Positions 4,676 through 19,383 of a stretch of 19,383 nt of DNA are shown here, piece by piece (the stretch's first letter is position 1; each line of letters opens with the position of its first letter). Source of the DNA: a virus; UHGV virus genome UHGV-1344012. One strand, written 5' to 3'. The notes beneath the pieces are model-generated. The model ran no database searches. It was not told where the DNA came from and was given only the letters and a program-made list of their open reading frames with translations. A program made the translations under genes and the position numbers.

Positions 4676-4998
4676 GCTGCACCGCCTTCAACGTTACGTA
4701 ACCAGATGCATACCGCGCCATCTTCGGTGTTGTGAATTGAACCGACAAACCAACCTTCACCGGCTGGCGATTCTGGCTGCCAGGCTGAAATATCGTAACC
4801 ATCAACTTCAGGATCGATGTCTTCTTCATCCCGGTAAACTACCGTCCATTCGAGGCCGTTTTTATCCAGCCAGGCGTTGAACTCATCAGGTGAGATAAAT
4901 TCACGACCATCGCAAAATTGCTCATAGACGGGGTGAGTCCANNNNNNNNNNTAGCCGTATTGGTCGCGTTCTACTGGTAATGCCGTAAATTTGCTCAT
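4672..4998 (-). CDS. Hypothetical protein (interrupted by a 10-nt N run)
   Basis: 108-aa ORF in operon context with overlapping stop/start to its neighbours; N run at 4942-4951 lies inside it, so the sequence and frame there are unverified. Confidence 0.45.
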   Translation of the reverse strand: MSKFTALPVERDQYGXXXXWTHPVYEQFCDGREFISPDEFNAWLDKNGLEWTVVYRDEEDIDPEVDGYDISAWQPESPAGEGWFVGSIHNTEDGAVCIWLRNVEGGAA

Positions 4999-7324: not shown

Positions 7325-7486
7325 GGTTTTACCCTCGTTATGGCGGNNNNNNNNNNCTGCCACCGCCGAACTTTCTCCATACACAACAGAGAAGGGCACC
7401 TGCATTTGTCGGCGACTGCAATCGCTATCCTCTTGCCCGGGTGGATTGGGGAATGAGCCCGTCGCCCGGTGATGCCCTTGTCTCTT

Positions 7487-11196: not shown

Positions 11197-11253
11197 NNNN
11201 NNNNNNNNNNNNNNNNNNNNNNNNNNNNNNNNNNNNNNNNNNCCCAATTTGCC

Positions 11254-13041: not shown

Positions 13042-14033
13042 GAGCTCTGCTTACCCCCGAGATCGCCCATCGTATGGGGATTGTGCTGTTCCGTCCCGGT
13101 ACGGAACTGATGCACCTCTTCATGCGTGGTCGCGTTCTGCTCGAGCCTGAACCAGAAGAAATGGCGTCATTCAGTACCGGGGCTGTTCCGGCAGCCATTC
13201 AGCCGCTAGCTGATGATCCGGTAATGCGTCAGGTCTTCGAGAATGAGAGGGTTATTCAGCGTGCCGGTGGGCTTCCTTCCCTTGAGCAATGGTTGAGTAA
13301 TCGGTTTGAATGCCAGTGGCCACATTCAACGTGGCACGACAAGAACTTCACAACAATGCGGCACCCACCAGGAAGTATTCGCCTGTGCTGGCATTGCGAT
13401 CACACTTTGTCGGGGCAGCATACCGAACAGCTTGCAGGTATAGCGGCCGGAAACCTGGTATCCTGGATTCTGGAAGTCATTCGGCGTGATTCTGGTTTTC
13501 CCGAGTCGCATATCCTGACGCTTCCTGAACTGTGCTGGTGGATGGTCAGAAACGACCTGGCTGATGTTATTCCGGAAAGCGTTGCGCACAAAGGGTTGCG
13601 CCTTCCGGATGAGAAGATCCGTTCTGTCATGAGGGAAAGCGACATAGTGCCTTCCTCGTCAGCAACCAGACTCGTGCAGGAGAAGGCGAAGAAGATCCTC
13701 ACGCTCTCTGTTGATCCGGAGTCGCCAGAGTCTTTTATGCTCAGGCCAAAACGTCGCCGCTGGATAAATGAGACGTACACCCGCTGGGTTAAAACACAAC
13801 CCTGTGAGTGTTGCCGACGGCCAGCAGATGATCCGCACCATATCGTAGGGCACGGTATGGGTGGTACAGCAACAAAAGCCCATGACCTCTTCGTGATCCC
13901 TCTGTGCAGAGAGTGCCACGACGAGTTACACGCCGATGTACCAGCATTCGAGCAGAAGCATGGTACGCAGCTTGAGCTGCTACTGCGTTTTATTGATCGA
14001 GCACTGGCGATCGGCGTAATTGCGACAGCTTAA
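13038..14033 (+). CDS. DUF968 family protein (YdfU-like), Cys/His-rich C-terminus
   Basis: 331-aa ORF starting at GTG 13038 (GTGA overlap with the upstream stop; AGGGGG RBS). C-terminal Cys/His cluster (…CECCRRPADDPHHIVGHG…CRECHDELH…) and position just upstream of Q match YdfU-like proteins as recalled. Confidence 0.6.
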   Translation: MRALLTPEIAHRMGIVLFRPGTELMHLFMRGRVLLEPEPEEMASFSTGAVPAAIQPLADDPVMRQVFENERVIQRAGGLPSLEQWLSNRFECQWPHSTWHDKNFTTMRHPPGSIRLCWHCDHTLSGQHTEQLAGIAAGNLVSWILEVIRRDSGFPESHILTLPELCWWMVRNDLADVIPESVAHKGLRLPDEKIRSVMRESDIVPSSSATRLVQEKAKKILTLSVDPESPESFMLRPKRRRWINETYTRWVKTQPCECCRRPADDPHHIVGHGMGGTATKAHDLFVIPLCRECHDELHADVPAFEQKHGTQLELLLRFIDRALAIGVIATA

Positions 14034-14049
14034 GAAGTATGGAGACCGT

Positions 14050-14880
14050 ATGAATCTGGACAATGTTTTAAAGTTTTTTGCGCCTAAAGGCATGCACATC
14101 TCAGATACCAGCAGAGCGACAGCAAGTGAGCAACTTACTGTGACTGATGTAATGGCTGCACTGGGGATGACTCAGGCTGATGCAGGCATCGGGCTGGCAA
14201 TGTTTCTAGGTAAAGCTGGTATCAGCAGCAAGGACAGGGAGATGTCAATTGCCTGGCTAACGGAGTACGCGAAAGAGCATGCGCCCATGGCTATTCGTAA
14301 AGCATCAGGGAAAAAGTTTCCCCTCTGCATGCGTATCCTTGCCCGGTTTGCCTATAACGATTATTCCTCATCAGCAGCTGATTGTGTGGCATGCCCAAAA
14401 TGTAGTGGTAAAGGGTTGCTTACAACCACTAAAACCGTGACTAAAAGCCATTACACAATGCGATTGCCACAATGGGCAAAAGACCTGAGACAGTCACCAT
14501 CTGACTTTGAGGTAAAGCGAGAAGTAACTGACTCCGAGCAAAGTTTATGTTCGCGATGCCATGGTACCGGAAAGTTAAGTAAGCGATGCCAGTGTGGCGG
14601 AACTGGCAAGACGGTTGACCGTAAAGCGACAGAACTGCAGGGCGTACCAGTTTACAAAGAATGTAAGCGCTGCGAAGGGCGGGGATACAGCAGGCCAAAA
14701 TCATCGGTTGCCTATCGAGGTGTTTTTTCTGAGTTGCCGAGTCTGCCTGACCGAACGTGGCGTTATAGCTGGAAACCATTCTATGAAAGCCTGGTGACCA
14801 AATGTTTCCAGGAGGAGAGTTATTCAAGCTCTCAACTGAATCGGGTGACTAAAAGTGAAGATGTGATAAATATCGCGTAA
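14050..14880 (+). CDS. Late-gene antiterminator Q-like protein (phage 82 Q / QuuQ-type, Zn-finger-like), copy 1
   Basis: Start set at ATG 14050 (MNLDNVLKFF…) with GGAG RBS, by alignment to the paralog at 17269. Cys-rich motifs (CPKCSGKG; CSRCHGTGK…CQCGGTGK; CKRCEGRG). Followed immediately by a consensus-like promoter and intrinsic terminator, the classic Q-pR'-tR' arrangement. Confidence 0.7.
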   Translation: MNLDNVLKFFAPKGMHISDTSRATASEQLTVTDVMAALGMTQADAGIGLAMFLGKAGISSKDREMSIAWLTEYAKEHAPMAIRKASGKKFPLCMRILARFAYNDYSSSAADCVACPKCSGKGLLTTTKTVTKSHYTMRLPQWAKDLRQSPSDFEVKREVTDSEQSLCSRCHGTGKLSKRCQCGGTGKTVDRKATELQGVPVYKECKRCEGRGYSRPKSSVAYRGVFSELPSLPDRTWRYSWKPFYESLVTKCFQEESYSSSQLNRVTKSEDVINIA

Positions 14881-14923
14881 TTTAGCGTCATGATGTTTGC
14901 AATGTTGCCGTATTTGTGTATAT

Positions 14924-14951
14924 TTGACATCAATGATGGGCTTTGTATAAC
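14924..14951 (+). promoter_or_regulatory. Candidate late promoter pR' (Q utilisation region)
   Basis: -35 TTGACA (14924-14929), 16-bp spacer, -10 TATAAC (14946-14951), located 44 nt after the Q1 stop. The predicted start site falls in the N run at 14958-14974. Confidence 0.5.
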
Positions 14952-14979
14952 TATCGANNNNNNNNNNNNNNNNNGATAA

Positions 14980-15002
14980 CCTCACCTCGGTGGGGTTTTT
15001 TT
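14980..15002 (+). terminator. Intrinsic terminator (tR'-like) downstream of pR'
   Basis: Hairpin CCTCAC-CTCG-GTGGGG (one G-U pair) followed by seven T (14996-15002). Confidence 0.6.
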
Positions 15003-15013
15003 ATGGTGATAGT

Positions 15014-15550
15014 ATGGAACTGACTAAAGAAAATGTTGCATTAATTGCTGCTTTGGGGATTTTTGTGGGTACATTGATAACTTCTCTTACAAGTTACCTC
15101 CAGAACAGTAGTAGGCAGTCGCATGAGTGGCGCTCAGAAAGAAATAGAAGGAAAATTGAAAAGGGTGAACAGCTTTATGAGGCATTAATACTTTATAAAA
15201 AATTGCTTTTTGCCAATCATATGAGCTGGATAAATTGTATTGATGGGTGTTTTAAATCTGAGGACATTGGCGATAAATCAGACGAAATTCTCAGTAAAAA
15301 CCCTGAGTATAAAGGAGTTGGTGATAGAATTATTTTAATCTCTGGTGTTTATTTTCCTGAGATTAGCGTTATGTTTGATGAATCTAGAAAATTGCTGAAA
15401 CCAGCCAATTCTGTTTTCTTCAAAATACAGTCAGGTGAAGTTGACGATAAGAAGTTGGCGAAGAATATAATTCTAAACGCTGGTCATAATTTTGATAAGG
15501 AGGCTAATAAAATGTTGGACTGTTTATCGAAAGAGATTAGATCGTTGTAA
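15014..15550 (+). CDS. AT-rich cargo (moron) gene: membrane-anchored protein of unknown function
   Basis: 178-aa ORF from ATG 15014 (MELTKENV…) with one N-terminal hydrophobic helix (ALIAALGIFVGTLITSLTSYL) and a Lys/Glu-rich soluble domain. Visibly much more AT-rich than the flanking phage genes; bracketed by two intrinsic terminators. The track's GTG start at 14990 lies inside the terminator hairpin. Confidence 0.6.
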   Translation: MELTKENVALIAALGIFVGTLITSLTSYLQNSSRQSHEWRSERNRRKIEKGEQLYEALILYKKLLFANHMSWINCIDGCFKSEDIGDKSDEILSKNPEYKGVGDRIILISGVYFPEISVMFDESRKLLKPANSVFFKIQSGEVDDKKLAKNIILNAGHNFDKEANKMLDCLSKEIRSL

Positions 15551-15568
15551 CAACTCAAAATTAACGAA

Positions 15569-15592
15569 GGTCACCAGATGGTGGCCTTTTTT
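15569..15592 (+). terminator. Intrinsic terminator after the cargo gene
   Basis: Hairpin GGTCACC-AGAT-GGTGGCC (one G-U pair) followed by TTTTTT (15587-15592), then TATT. Confidence 0.6.
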
Positions 15593-15638
15593 ATTCCCCT
15601 CGTTCTGAGAGGACTCACAGCAATAAAGAGGGGGCTAA

Positions 15639-16025
15639 ATGTCCGATCCGATTTCCGGTACTGGGCTGGCTGGTGGTGTCCTGACGGGAGCTAGCGTCTA
15701 TGGATTTCTGTCCGGAACCGATTACGGCGTGGTGTTTGGCGCATTTGCCGGAGCTGTATTTTACATTGCAACAGCTGCGGACCTTAGTGCAACGCGTCGG
15801 CTGGCGTATTTTGTCGTGTCCTACATCGCCGGGATCATCTGCTCAGGGCTGGTGGGTTCAAAGCTGGCTGACTGGACTGGTTACAGTGATAAGCCTCTGG
15901 ATGCCATCGGTGCCGTAATCGTTTCGGCTTTAGCTGTCAAAATCCTGACGTTCCTGAATAACCAGGATGTCGGCTCTTTGGTGGCGCTGATAACGCGCCG
16001 GGGAGGTTCTGGTGGTACTAAATGA
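15639..16025 (+). CDS. Holin-like membrane protein (about 4 predicted TM segments)
   Basis: 128-aa Gly/Ala-rich ORF with several hydrophobic stretches, GAGGGGG RBS, first gene of the lysis cassette upstream of the endolysin. Confidence 0.6.
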   Translation: MSDPISGTGLAGGVLTGASVYGFLSGTDYGVVFGAFAGAVFYIATAADLSATRRLAYFVVSYIAGIICSGLVGSKLADWTGYSDKPLDAIGAVIVSALAVKILTFLNNQDVGSLVALITRRGGSGGTK

Positions 16026-16293
16026 CCCATCGGCAACAATCAACGCTCTTCTATGCGTCGGGGTGGTGATTACCCTGATGTTTTATCGTCGTGGTGATTC
16101 ACGCCATCGTCCGTGGGTTTCGCGTTTAGCCTGGCTAATTACTGTCACGTACAGCGCTGTGCCTCTGGCCTACCTGTGCGGGATTTATCCTCATTCGTCA
16201 TGGGCCACTATTGGGGCCAACATTATTTTCCTTTCCGTGCTAGTGGCCGTCAGAGGCAACGTTGCGCGCCTGGTTGATCATCTGAGGCACTAA
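16012..16293 (+). CDS. Second holin-like membrane protein (3 predicted TM segments)
   Basis: 93-aa ORF starting at GTG 16012 with GGGAGG RBS 5 nt upstream; overlaps the end of the preceding gene and ends at the endolysin start (TAATG). Three hydrophobic helices. Confidence 0.5.
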   Translation: MVLNDPSATINALLCVGVVITLMFYRRGDSRHRPWVSRLAWLITVTYSAVPLAYLCGIYPHSSWATIGANIIFLSVLVAVRGNVARLVDHLRH

Positions 16294-16907
16294 TGAACCA
16301 ATCACAATTTCAAAAGGCGGCTGGCATTAGCGCCGGGTTAGCTGCGCGCTGGTTTCCGCACATTGATGCTGCAATGAAAGAGTTTGGAATCACAGCAGTT
16401 AACGATCAGGCCATGTTCATTGCACAAGTTGGGCATGAATCTGCTGGTTTTACCTCGCTGGTGGAAAGCTTCAACTACTCGGTAGACGGGCTGAAGAAAA
16501 CCTTTAGTAAACGCCTGACGCCTTATCAGTGTGAAATGCTGGGGCGTGTCGATGGTAAGCAGGTAGCCCACCAGCCGCAAATAGCCAATCTGGTTTATGG
16601 TGACCGCATGGGGAATAACAGCCAGGGTGACGGCTGGAAATATCGCGGTCGTGGCCTGCTGCAAATCACTGGTCGTGAGAACTACACCAAATGCGGTACG
16701 GCGCTGAAGCTTGACCTTGTGAGCACTCCGGAACTATTGACGCAAGAGCGACACGCGGCCCGTTCGGCGGCATGGTACTTCACGTTACGCGGTTGTCTCC
16801 TCTATTCGGGGGATGTGGAACGCGTCACGCAGATTATTAACGGCGGGCAGAACGGCATTAAAGACCGCCGTGAACGTTACGCCAAAGCTAAAGCCGCACT
16901 GGTGTGA
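16293..16907 (+). CDS. Endolysin, glycoside hydrolase family 19 (chitinase-like lysozyme)
   Basis: 204-aa ORF with GH19-like conserved regions (…QAMFIAQVGHESAGFTSLVESFNYS…, …GWKYRGRGLLQITGRENY…) as in Salmonella/E. coli phage GH19 endolysins; follows the holin-like genes. Confidence 0.8.
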   Translation: MNQSQFQKAAGISAGLAARWFPHIDAAMKEFGITAVNDQAMFIAQVGHESAGFTSLVESFNYSVDGLKKTFSKRLTPYQCEMLGRVDGKQVAHQPQIANLVYGDRMGNNSQGDGWKYRGRGLLQITGRENYTKCGTALKLDLVSTPELLTQERHAARSAAWYFTLRGCLLYSGDVERVTQIINGGQNGIKDRRERYAKAKAALV

Positions 16908-16914
16908 GGTCACT

Positions 16915-17265
16915 ATGGGACTTGAAATGATTATCGGCCTGATTGTTGCCGCGCTGGCAGCAATTGCAGGTGCCTTTGGTCTGGGTAAATCTCGCGGTAC
17001 CAGTATCGCAGAAACAAAAGCGGACCGTATGGGTTATGAGAGCCTCGACAAAGACGAACAGGCCGCAATCAATCTTCCTGCCTCAATGATTCGCTTGTTG
17101 AAGCAACGAGAGGGCGAAGGGTGGATCGGTGACATCGGAGCTAATTTCGACTCTCGCTCTCACCAGTTCCTGGAAGGCGAGAAAAAACCATTTAACTACC
17201 TGGTCGGTAAGCCGCAAAGCGAGTTTGATCTCGAGTGGGAAGCCAGCAACGTAACGAGGGTTTGA
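16915..17265 (+). CDS. Small membrane-anchored protein in the spanin position (function unknown)
   Basis: 116-aa ORF from ATG 16915 (GAGG RBS) with one N-terminal TM helix (MIIGLIVAALAAIAGAFGL). It lacks the long coiled coil expected of an Rz-type i-spanin, so the spanin role is not supported. Confidence 0.45.
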   Translation: MGLEMIIGLIVAALAAIAGAFGLGKSRGTSIAETKADRMGYESLDKDEQAAINLPASMIRLLKQREGEGWIGDIGANFDSRSHQFLEGEKKPFNYLVGKPQSEFDLEWEASNVTRV

Positions 17266-17268
17266 GAT

Positions 17269-18101
17269 ATGAAACTTGAAGCTTCACTAAAACACTTTAG
17301 CCCTCAGGGTATGCACATCAGCGACGACGTGAAAGGAACCTCTCCGGACCGCCTTACAGGAACAGATGTAATGGCGGCAATTGGCACCACCANNNNNNNN
17401 NNNNNNNNNNNNNNNNNNNNNNNNNNNNNNNNNNNATCAGCAAAACGGATGAACAGCTCGCAGTTCAGGCGCTGGCGCGATATGCGATGGATGTCGCACC
17501 GAAGAATGTTCGCAAAGCAGCTGGTGGGCAGTTCGGATGGTGCATGCAGATGTTGGCACAATTTGCCTTTGCTGATTATTCACGTTCGGCGGCTACAAGC
17601 GTGACGTGTCACAGCTGCAGTGGTACCGGACGAACAACCCGCGAACAGATTACCCGCAAGGTTTCGTACCCATGGGGTAAAGCTCCATACTGGGCCTGCC
17701 GCTCTCGTGCTGTTCGACCGTCTGACTGGGAGCAGTGGATGGAGGTAACAGAGGTTGTACCGGCGGTCTGTGATGCTTGCGAAGGCAAGGGAACGATCAG
17801 CGCCCGTTGTCGTTGCGGCGGTAAAGGCGAGGTTCTAGACCGCAAGGCCACAAGCGAGCGCGGCGCGCCGGTGTTTAAAACCTGCGAGCGCTGCAGCGGA
17901 AATGGATTTTCTGCGGTGCCGTCTACCGCAGCCTATAAAGTGATACTGAAGCGCGTTCCGGATCTGCACGTCAGAACATGGACTCGCAACTGGAAACCGT
18001 TTCTTGAGGCGCTGGTAAGCATTTGTCAGCAGGAGGAGGGAAACGCCGCAAGAGAATTTCAATCTGCAACCAGTTTAGGCGAAGAAGGTGACGAAATTTA
18101 G
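17269..18101 (+). CDS. Second Q-like antiterminator paralog (interrupted by a 43-nt N run)
   Basis: N-terminus (MKLEASLKHFSPQGMHISD…TGTDVMAAIG) and C-terminal Cys-rich region (CHSCSGTG…; CDACEGKG…CRCGGKG…; CERCSGNG; …RTWTRNWKPF…) align with Q1. Span is not a multiple of 3, so the N run (17393-17435) does not reflect true length. GAGGG RBS before ATG 17269. Confidence 0.65.
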
Positions 18102-18190
18102 CATTATTACGACATAAGGCTTGATTTTGTCCGAAGTTGTCGTGTATGCTTCTAATCATGCGGAGTAACGCCTGAAAGATTTCAACAATA

Positions 18191-18211
18191 AGCCCCTTGC
18201 GGGGCTTTTTT
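18191..18211. terminator. Bidirectional intrinsic terminator between Q2 and the convergent orphan gene
   Basis: Perfect hairpin AGCCCC-TTGC-GGGGCT followed by a T-tract on the plus strand and preceded by an A-rich run (T-rich for the minus-strand transcript). The minus-strand gene's stop codon (18210-18212) overlaps the T-tract. Confidence 0.65.
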
Positions 18212-19160
18212 ATGGCAGCGAGTTAACGAAAGAACTGAAAAGGGCCTTATCTTTATTGCTAATTGATTTTTTCAAATGTAGTTGATGATTTAAAGGTTTA
18301 AAGTTTTCCTTTGTGAGATATATACATGCTTTCTCAAAACGATCCTGAAGGAATTGAAATCTTTCATTCAGCCTGGAAACTTTTAATCCTAATGACATGA
18401 CCTTCTTCTCAGGAATATCGTCAGGATTGCAATTATTGAGTTCTTCCAGCACAAGGCGAATATCTCTTTCGAAGATTAGCGCTATGTTATAATCGTTGAG
18501 GAGGCATTCAGGATTACGAACAATGCCAATTACTTCGTCGATGAATTGTGGTTTTACATTATCCTCAGCATTTTCATCTTCGTTATCGGAAGGTTTTTGA
18601 GACATAACATTCGACAACTGCATTTCTTCCTTGGTTTTCCTTCTGGGAAGTAAAACTTTTCCATCTCCTAAAGCAGCCATACGTTTCAAAGCTTGACTCC
18701 CGGCTCGGCCAACTACTTTAGAATCTCTTAAATCTAAAATTTTATGTGCGACCCATTCTAATGATGGTTCACTGGCTTCGATTTTGGCTTTTGCTTGGTA
18801 ATGGAGAAAAATATTTTTCTTGGCTTCCTTGAGGGCTGTTAGATATCTGTGGAAATTTGCCTTTTTCTCGAGGTCAGTGGCTAGGTTTTCAAATGCTATA
18901 CCGAAGACTTTTGTACCGCAAACGTGACCCAGGTTCGTCTCCAGACCATCCTCAGTAAGAACAAGAAACCCTTTTTTATGGCCTGTTCGACAGCTCGACT
19001 TGCCACACGGGATTTCTTCCGGGAGGTCATCATAATAACCAAAAACATCGGATAATTGTTGATCGGTCAGTTCCAGCCTGGAATGATAGCTTTCCCGAGC
19101 TTGAATTTCTGTCCAGTCATTAATGCGATCAAAGCTATTGCCGTTTTTAATAAAAATCAT
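18210..19160 (-). CDS. AT-rich orphan protein of unknown function (316 aa)
   Basis: Long uninterrupted ORF with a GGGA-type RBS before ATG 19158-19160. Visibly AT-rich relative to the phage backbone, with an acidic low-complexity stretch (SDNEDENAEDN) and a Cys/His cluster (PCGKSSCRTGHKKG…GHVCG). No recognisable family by eye. Confidence 0.6.
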   Translation of the reverse strand: MIFIKNGNSFDRINDWTEIQARESYHSRLELTDQQLSDVFGYYDDLPEEIPCGKSSCRTGHKKGFLVLTEDGLETNLGHVCGTKVFGIAFENLATDLEKKANFHRYLTALKEAKKNIFLHYQAKAKIEASEPSLEWVAHKILDLRDSKVVGRAGSQALKRMAALGDGKVLLPRRKTKEEMQLSNVMSQKPSDNEDENAEDNVKPQFIDEVIGIVRNPECLLNDYNIALIFERDIRLVLEELNNCNPDDIPEKKVMSLGLKVSRLNERFQFLQDRFEKACIYLTKENFKPLNHQLHLKKSISNKDKALFSSFVNSLP

Positions 19161-19285
19161 ATCTTCCCTTGCTCTGGTTAGATTGAAAGCACTGCCGCTT
19201 GATATTTAACCATTTCCCTGATTGTTTTTCATCATAAAACCATATTATTGCAAGGGTAGTTTTACCTATGTATCTTCTTGCTCCC

Positions 19286-19362
19286 GGCCCTTTAGCTCAG
19301 TTGGTTAGAGCGTGCGACTCATAATCGCCCGGTCGCTGGTTCAAGTCCAGCAAGGGCCACCA
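19286..19362 (+). tRNA. tRNA with CAU anticodon (Ile2-lysidine type or Met; ileX/ileZ-like)
   Basis: Cloverleaf readable by eye: acceptor GGCCCTT/AAGGGCC, D-arm GCTC-AGTTGGTTA-GAGC, anticodon loop CTCATAA (CAT), T-arm GCTGG-TTCAAGT-CCAGC, discriminator A and encoded CCA. A candidate promoter (TTGCAA 19248-19253, 17-bp spacer, TATCTT) and GC-rich discriminator lie upstream. Confidence 0.85.
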
Positions 19363-19383
19363 GACCGCCACTAGCTCATCGGG

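Follow-up and report, generated by a model that had tools for sequence, protein, structure and literature searches.

We analysed a 19,383-nucleotide (nt) stretch of the virus genome UHGV-1344012, which is called the window below, and found that an AT-rich gene of 178 codons (the cargo gene) occupies the interval between the late antiterminator gene Q1 and the holin genes of a lambdoid prophage. It is the first gene of the late operon and part of a mobile accessory cassette, which consists of the hairpin of the terminator tR', a Shine-Dalgarno (SD) sequence, the open reading frame (ORF) and a second terminator, t2 (Table 1). We are highly confident of this anatomy. The explanation as a whole, in which the product would be held at the inner membrane and act in conflicts with other phages, is the best we can offer and is put forward tentatively.

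The GC content over positions 14850-15600 is 0.33-0.36, while both flanks have 0.47-0.57, and the ORF itself has 35% GC versus about 52% for the surrounding phage DNA. The scans for ORFs, GC content and hairpins agreed with the first-pass annotation of this DNA, which had described an AT-rich ORF of 178 amino acids (aa) between two terminators, from the Q side to the holin side. We calculate a chance of about 2e-6 per start that a frame stays open for 178 codons at 35% GC. The ratio of nonsynonymous to synonymous divergence (dN/dS) between the E. coli and Citrobacter copies is 0.20, and the nonsynonymous proportion (pN) is far under the synonymous one (pS) in all pairs compared. Because of these values and the homologous clusters described below, the cargo gene is evidently real and under selection. 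If the ORF were spurious or in decay within an AT-rich spacer that separates tandem late terminators, there would be a precedent in lambda, where the tR'-S spacer of about 400 nt has no gene of known function and includes a second terminator-like hairpin, the only exception being the annotated hypothetical orf-64, which sits upstream of tR'. However, such an ORF would not be expected to show a dN/dS of 0.20, a length kept at 167-202 aa over about 40 clusters down to about 20% identity, conserved motifs and a confident fold prediction; the conservation pattern refutes this explanation, and we give it hardly any credence. The concern that the ORF might be a pseudogene or untranslated in related prophages, which had been raised beforehand, is answered by the same dN/dS and kept length. 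Besides, the 186-aa form with a GTG start and the 216-aa database forms were rejected as over-extended calls, whose N-termini translate the terminator and the promoter.

The low GC content turned out to be a standing trait of the family: the 11 members tested, which include relatives with as little as about 20-25% protein identity, all have 33-39% GC with flanks of 49-55%. It is therefore no evidence of recent acquisition, although the composition had first been taken as a sign of horizontal transfer.

The signals between Q1 and the cargo gene correspond to the late control region of phage lambda. Q1 matches PF03589 (5e-46) and the Q-lambda structures of PDB 7UBM (chain Q; 6.6e-44) and 4MO1 (1e-31), is annotated in RefSeq as antitermination protein, and contains an inserted CXXCXGXG zinc finger (DnaJ_CXXCXGXG, 4.9e-07). 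The late promoter pR' was matched by the promoter scan at 9 of 12 positions, and its sequence, CATGATGTTTGCAA-N16-TATATT-TGACATC-AATGAT-GGG, aligns position by position with lambda pR' in the lambda Q-S interval, GCATGATATTGACT-N17-TAAATT-TGACTC-AACGAT-GGG, where TTGACA at 14924-14929 of the window is the counterpart of lambda TTGACT. In lambda, the pause element at which Q loads is AACGAT at +1 to +6, which is followed by the discriminator-like GGG (PMC4005639). The motif (A/C)A(A/C)(C/T/A)(G/A)ATGGGC is kept in every Q-adjacent relative, and the pause motif and the hairpin are retained even where the Q of the relative is only 36% identical. Diverged loci are promoter-like at the position of pR', for example with TTGCAT-17-TAAAAT in locus L024. 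Both the homology of Q and the order of promoter, pause and terminator, as judged by sequence alignment, are those of a lambda-type Q/pR'/tR' unit, and pausing and antitermination are predicted to take place at pR' here. Another candidate promoter, TTGACA (14924)-N16-TATAAC, is near consensus but was rejected, since its spacing collapses in L024 and its TTGACA aligns after the lambda -10.

The terminator tR' ends a leader RNA of about 61 nt in the genomes that lack the N run of the window. The whole leader folds with -25.1 kcal/mol (z = -4.3), and the tR' stem shows compensatory changes, namely AAACTCAC/GTGAGTTT in L025 and CCTCGT/ACGAGG in L026. We scanned for terminators and obtained 8 terminator-like sites in 3.5 kb, where 3.0 +/- 1.7 were expected; tR' and t2 are those with clean T-tracts. 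Between the end of the tR' T-tract at 15002 and the ATG at 15014 there is a gap of 11 nt, too short to contain a promoter, and six of seven distinct leaders have TTTTTTTATGGTGA-N4-ATG, while L024 has GTGGTGGAG. The promoter scan revealed no promoter-like site between 14925 and 15014, and the cargo gene is therefore taken to be transcribed from pR'. The run of 17 N in the leader, which had been suspected of hiding a promoter, corresponds to only 7 nt (TCACTAT) in genomes that are 99-100% identical around it, and these contain no promoter. A TATGAT in this masked segment was considered as a bypass promoter and rejected, as by inspection it has no usable -35 hexamer. The cassette is evidently an evolutionary unit and not a transcriptional unit, without a promoter of its own. 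The first-pass annotation went too far in calling it self-contained: the terminator at its front is tR', belonging to a lambda-like pR', and only 11 nt lie between the T-tract and the start codon.

For the seven distinct leaders, RNAalifold pairs TCACTATGA from the masked segment with TTATGGTGA, which contains the SD sequence, in an outer stem that is well kept in five leaders and partial in the two most diverged. This stem is predicted to damp the translation of the cargo gene. The pR'-tR' leader (14932-15002; 16933-16993 in L001) would also be made constitutively in lysogens as a structured RNA of its own, and in this it is analogous to lambda 6S RNA and to StxS, a regulatory sRNA of Stx phages (PMC7547250). 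Rfam searches with the leader and the gene gave sub-threshold matches only (istR, 22.9 bits versus 45; Phe_leader, 23.2 versus 55).

The second terminator marks the other end of the cassette. The t2 region folds with -15.7 kcal/mol (z = -3.3) and has compensatory changes in L002 and L003. The homology shared with other lysis cassettes starts at 15568-15594, and in Citrobacter prophages with another lysis cassette the homology stops just past the second terminator. To all appearance, t2 is the junction between cargo and lysis cassette. Among 11 distinct contexts of the family, 8 have a clean intrinsic terminator within 60 nt of the stop codon, including those with both atypical Q types and two in the post-lysis slot. 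In addition, a linker, TTTTTTATTCCCCTC-N5-GAGAGGACTCACAGCAATAAAGAGGGGGCTAAATG at 15587-15640, joins the T-tract of t2 to the start of the Phage_holin_8 gene in many prophages, whatever the cargo. It was seen upstream of the holin in L039, L040, L027 and L037, has a small CCTC/GAGG inverted repeat inside, and may be a recombination module boundary or a holin control element.

These features lead to a model of expression. Within a Q-antiterminated operon, terminators matter only to a polymerase that Q has not modified. A conserved second terminator immediately behind the cargo gene therefore indicates that the gene receives some Q-independent transcription, and its recurrence in 8 of 11 contexts points to expression from the repressed prophage. 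Transcripts would begin at a constitutive lambda-like pR' near 14932; in lysogens of Stx phages, pR' is constitutively active and its transcripts are terminated just downstream (PMC7547250). In the lysogen, most transcripts would stop at tR', while the leaked ones would copy the cargo gene and end at t2, which, given this leak, must stop the polymerase before the holins. After induction, the Q-modified polymerase would read past both terminators and the cargo gene would be the first late gene expressed. The predicted stem between leader and SD sequence would hold its translation at a low level.

The cargo gene is rare. Two complete E. coli chromosomes and four IMG/VR prophage contigs match the region at 99-100% identity, and in LR536430 the lambdoid prophage is integrated beside yecN/cmoA. 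We found the gene in 2 of 5,426 complete E. coli genomes, while a collection of 50,697 phage records and one of 72,556 plasmids gave no tblastn match. Such a rare and patchy distribution is typical of conflict genes. All placed members lie on the late-gene strand between Q and terminase: the closer relatives (34-100% identity) right after Q and ahead of the holin, the distant ones past the spanins and ahead of HNH or terminase. For the Q-adjacent lineages, the percent identities of Q and cargo are 100/100, 96/100, 93/90, 78/70 and about 36/34-42. Strict co-divergence with Q, as for a core gene of the Q module, holds for these lineages only and was rejected for the family, as it is broken by P0007, L027 and the members between spanins and terminase. 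In P0007 a cargo gene of 62% identity lies between a DUF1133-type Q and a Phage_holin_3_3 gene, and in L027 the cargo gene comes after a QuuD-type Q and a reverse-strand gene. In total, the family occupies two slots and adjoins three or more types of Q and five or more types of holin, and the cassette evidently moves between contexts. A 10/12 promoter-like site lies ahead of the relative in L011; the number of such sites is no higher than chance.

The same contexts bear on whether the product modulates the timing of lysis, with its transmembrane (TM) helix or bundle binding holin or antiholin or stabilising the membrane, analogous to T4 RIII or P1 LydB. Every member flanks the lysis cassette on the late strand, before the holin or after the spanins, the gene would be the first one made once Q acts, the packing motif in its TM helix (see below) is conserved, and the Phage_holin_8/holin_3_7 pair occurs in 7 independent contexts. 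With at least five holin types, however, there is no conserved cognate partner, and the cargo protein has no holin match in Pfam or PHROG and no constant holin partner across the family. In the Q-adjacent members, its identity follows Q and not the holin (cargo 42% with holin 91%; cargo 70% with holin 58%). Close lysis cassettes also work without the cargo gene and with unrelated cargo, and terminators immediately downstream would be senseless for a purely late gene. We thus regard a role in lysis timing as quite improbable.

The interval between Q and holin is filled differently in related phages, as expected for the classic lambdoid moron site that the first-pass annotation had recognised, and the cargo gene sits there as an extra gene. 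Klebsiella phage Kp4866-6, whose Q is 77.5% identical, has the same pR' and pause element, after which come a different tR' hairpin, a small gene of winged-helix type and one for a DNA methyltransferase. E. coli FAM21845, D10 and B27 have the same holin cassette and unrelated cargo, namely a 249-aa soluble orphan (GC 0.33), a 198-aa TM orphan (GC 0.38), and a DUF6602 protein with a small ORF; their Q is DUF1133-type, except in B27, which has an "antiterminator Q family" protein. Since Kp4866-6 with the same Q and pR' has other genes, and the same holin cassette follows unrelated cargo, the cargo gene is by all signs accessory and not core, as had been proposed. Six different cargos were found among seven other genomes sampled. 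The two orphan cargos inspected (L039 and L040) each lie between tR'-type and t2-type hairpins that abut TTTTTTATTCCCCTC...GAGAGG. Neither of these E. coli orphans has a match among defence or Pfam families. Phages Chris1 and LMessi have a UspF-like gene and TerB/TciB-like genes in the slot. Overall, the contents of the slot comprise the 249-aa orphan, the 198-aa TM orphan, DUF6602, UspF-like, TerB/TciB-like, and winged helix-turn-helix plus N6/N4 methyltransferase genes (intervals: L039 1667-2416, L040 1871-2467, L041 1171-2465, L042 1749-2183, L043 1622-2543, L044 3542-4962). A relationship of the cargo family to the cargos of D10 and FAM21845 was rejected, with an hhalign probability of about 1%.

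Some of these genes point to a different kind of benefit, in which the cargo gene would be a factor of lysogenic conversion or host physiology outside conflict, a membrane-anchored protein that alters the physiology of envelope or stress, for instance in colicin, metal or membrane-stress tolerance, or one that supports the cell in late infection. Genes annotated as UspF, tellurite resistance (TerB-like) and TciB-like occupy the slot elsewhere; its classic cargo includes toxins, such as Stx (PMC6266700 and PMC7547250), and not defence genes; and the downstream terminators imply expression in the prophage. Against this, the scans with Pfam and NCBIfam gave no homology to stress or resistance families, and the very low prevalence argues against a general fitness benefit. 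We consider a conversion factor unlikely, with an appreciable chance all the same.

Among 5.8 billion proteins, a single-sequence query retrieved 7 homologous clusters of the cargo protein and a profile retrieved 38, and a set of 1.84 billion representatives contained 19 clusters of the cargo family. All named sources are Enterobacterales (Escherichia, Citrobacter, Pantoea, Enterobacter, Hafnia and Cronobacter). The cargo protein has no family match in Pfam, PHROGs, PADLOC or NCBIfam. Besides, 20 members were scanned singly against Pfam, PHROGs and PADLOC and 10 more against Pfam alone, and it turned out that both sets gave sub-threshold hits only, driven by the TM segment. A profile search against PDB sequences returned nothing under E = 0.1, a pattern scan of the GTDB species representatives gave no relative, and a literature search with the RefSeq accession gave no match. 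The first-pass annotation, which had recognised nothing in this protein and suggested sensitive homology and structure searches, was thus essentially right: these searches produced no family, no homology to a known housekeeping or structural phage protein, and fold matches to generic four-helix bundles only. Pfam did not confirm the label "DUF2489" that one distant member has in UniRef.

RefSeq nevertheless carries a product name, "heme biosynthesis HemY N-terminal domain-containing protein", which was assigned by PGAP and agrees with a Pfam match to HemY_N (PF07219; E = 0.0045). This match reaches 17.5 bits versus a gathering score of 31, covers only residues 8-50, that is, the TM helix and the basic stretch, and is found in 1 of 20 family members, and the locus is a prophage late operon. 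As the naming follows from a sub-threshold match to the TM segment, it is unsound; the name is misleading and should be disregarded, and there is next to no chance that the protein is a HemY-like protein of haem biosynthesis.

Residues 8-26 form the only hydrophobic stretch of the protein (mean Kyte-Doolittle 2.19), which confirms the single N-terminal TM helix described at first. AlphaFold2 with a 20-sequence alignment gave a mean pLDDT of 94.7 and a pTM of 0.79, with a continuous helix at 5-76 and further helices at 82-95, 102-113, 115-140 and 146-177. The protein is thus predicted to be a TM helix that runs on into a four-helix bundle. Exactly one N-terminal hydrophobic stretch is present in 20 of 20 members, preceded by a tail of 0-21 residues with 0-2 Lys/Arg and followed by 20 residues with 3-7 Lys/Arg. 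By the positive-inside rule, these counts predict an N-out/C-in protein, whose soluble bundle would be cytoplasmic and anchored in the inner membrane. The soluble domain proposed earlier would be this bundle, and its predicted cytoplasmic location speaks against an exclusion mechanism working in the periplasm. All 20 members also have at least one small-xxx-small motif in the TM helix, which is G15xxxG19 in this protein and has Ser/Ala in the distant ones; such a motif suggests packing between helices. Other conserved residues are E52 in K-G-E-E-L-Y, His69 in most members, Y113-F114-P115 and an L-K-P-A-N motif.

The opposite topology, with a signal anchor (N-in/C-out) and a periplasmic bundle as in the ligand-binding domains of chemoreceptors or T4 RI, would make the protein sensor-like. 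In 20 of 20 members the positive-inside rule points the other way, there is no second TM helix (TM2) and no output domain, and de novo bundles and talin score nearly alike, which indicates generic similarity. A periplasmic sensor is thus very improbable.

We return to the role in conflict. The cargo protein may serve its prophage in conflicts with other phages, working at the cytoplasmic face of the inner membrane either by exclusion of incoming genomes or by abortive infection; we propose this function with considerable doubt. The bundle, held at the inner face by one N-out/C-in TM helix with the conserved small-xxx-small motif, would be a binding module, while the TM helix would serve oligomerisation or contact with a membrane partner. 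The protein could prevent other genomes from entering productively, or it could detect infection and then impair the membrane. We favour a conflict role because the gene is rare and patchily distributed, is built like a moron, and encodes a membrane anchor that has a packing motif. Moreover, prophage defence genes are documented at the neighbouring moron locus of the late operon, just upstream of packaging (Tai in phi80; PMC11364771).

Several findings weigh against this function or the expression it assumes. A cytoplasmic domain is ill-suited to exclusion that acts on receptors or in the periplasm. No homology in the PADLOC and PHROG scans ties the protein to defence: PADLOC-DB v2 has no family for it, and the 20 members give single chance-level hits (E >= 0.01), while no PHROG family of known function was matched. 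The fold matches to generic four-helix bundles have 5-13% identity and include de novo designs. Of the slot cargos, four were scanned against Pfam and two of these also against PADLOC, and none matched a characterised family. With a good tR' and no promoter of its own, the expression of the gene in the lysogen may be negligible and the gene purely late; the diverged, Q-adjacent loci L024, L025 and L026 are without a clean second terminator; and the position of every member on the late strand beside the lysis cassette also fits a role in late infection or lysis.

The slot may be the more valuable lead, as orphan AT-rich genes recur there, delimited by terminators. It repeatedly contains different AT-rich single genes bracketed by similar terminators, which suggests a cheap, targeted route to new accessory and defence functions. 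A wider proposal is that the slot in Enterobacterales prophages is a systematic hotspot of terminator-bracketed, AT-rich single-gene cassettes, comparable to the P2/P4 hotspots as a source of unknown conflict genes, and that the cargo protein founds a new membrane-anchored family of single-gene prophage immunity acting from the cytoplasmic inner face, with its dose in the lysogen set by the tR' leak, its translation damped by the SD stem and the holins shielded by t2; taken together this is rather unlikely. The family is now defined with high-confidence predictions of fold and topology, and its RefSeq name and gene models are corrected.

Table 1. Features of the cargo cassette and its surroundings (positions in the window)
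Feature	Position	Strand	Details
Q1, late-gene antiterminator, lambda-Q family	14020-14880	+	RefSeq start equivalent to 14050
pR' late promoter	14897-14924	+	-35 TTGCAA 14897-14902; 16-nt spacer; -10 TATATT 14919-14924
Probable transcription start and sigma70-dependent pause element	14932-14940	+	-10-like AATGAT, then GGG
N run in pR' leader	14958-14974	.	17 N
tR' intrinsic terminator	14978-15002	+	stem 14978-14997, AACCTCAC-CTCG-GTGGGGTT; T7 to 15002
Shine-Dalgarno GGTGA	15005-15009	+	4 nt ahead of ATG
Cargo gene	15014-15550	+	178 aa; ATG 15014; stop 15548-15550
t2, second intrinsic terminator	15566-15592	+	stem 15566-15589, GAAGGTCACC-AGAT-GGTGGCCTTT; T6 to 15592
Lysis cassette 1, Phage_holin_8	15639-16025	+	
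Lysis cassette 1, Phage_holin_3_7	16012-16293	+	
Lysis cassette 1, GH19 endolysin	16293-16907	+	

Some observations concern the wider prophage. There are two tandem modules of late control and lysis (14020-19383 in the window; 16000-23700 in L001). The first comprises Q1, the cargo gene, holin_8, holin_3_7 and GH19; the second comprises Q2 (17269-18101, 46% identical to Q1), a reverse-strand orphan and tRNA genes, followed in the complete genome by a class II holin and a lysozyme. The orphan (18210-19160, minus strand, 316 aa, GC 0.36-0.44) is a second AT-rich gene, which directly follows Q2, at the place in the second module that corresponds to the cargo slot, and has no match in Pfam, PADLOC or NCBIfam. 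The tRNA at 19286-19362 with a CAT anticodon was called tRNA-Met by ARAGORN, while RefSeq labels the same gene in LR536430 as tRNA-Ile; there tRNA-Thr and tRNA-Gly come next, and all three genes lie between Q2 and the second lysis cassette. The window contains N runs at 4942-4951, 7347-7356, 11197-11242, 14958-14974 and 17393-17435, whose lengths differ from the real sequence: in LR536430, for example, the run of 17 N is 7 nt long and that of 43 N is 47 nt long. Coordinates and frames across them are therefore unreliable, and the apparent frameshift of Q2 is due only to the run at 17393-17435.

Compared with the late control of lambda (Q, pR', sigma70 pause, tR' and 6S RNA), the window has a Q homologous to Q-lambda, and the -35 and -10 elements, TTGAC(A/T), A(A/C)(T/G)GAT at +1 to +6 and GGG can be aligned. 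An intrinsic terminator ends a short leader in both, and upstream of S lambda likewise has another terminator-like hairpin. The differences are the length of the pR'-tR' leader, about 61 nt here and about 194 nt in lambda, the zinc-finger insertion in the Q of the window, and the 178-aa gene between the terminators, where lambda has none.

A classical moron is an insertion of promoter, gene and terminator with deviant composition. Like lambda bor and lom and HK97 gp15, the last of which encodes a small inner-membrane protein, the cargo gene is an extra gene between conserved modules, with low GC content, its own terminator and presence/absence variation. It differs in having no promoter of its own and no sequence similarity to these genes; in the sense of Juhala and Hendrix, the extra gene, the composition and the terminator are those of a moron and the promoter is missing.

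The stx2AB genes of lambdoid Stx phages occupy the same slot and are transcribed from pR' under antitermination by Q (PMC6266700 and PMC7547250). Their product is a secreted AB5 toxin, whereas a membrane-anchored cytoplasmic bundle is predicted here, and the window differs further in the ATG 11 nt past tR' and in the dedicated terminator between cargo and holin. The Tai (tail assembly inhibition) defence genes of phi80-like prophages are single accessory genes at moron loci of the late operon, for the most part directly upstream of packaging (PMC11364771), in a position like that of the distant members of the cargo family; tblastn gave no match to the cargo gene in the phage collection, which includes phi80. 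Lambdoid late-operon cargo includes Shiga toxin and, more recently, anti-phage systems. The 4HB_MCP sensor domains (Tar, PcaY, MCP2201 and NarX) differ from the cargo protein in having 6-11% identity to it, without a Pfam 4HB_MCP hit; its bundle is predicted to be cytoplasmic and not periplasmic, it has no TM2 or signalling domain, and de novo bundles reach similar scores. The cargo protein is not a member of this family.

In conclusion, a cargo in the slot between Q and the lysis genes under the control of pR' and Q is a known arrangement. The protein family is undescribed, and its wiring, with tR' set against the start codon, is resolved here.

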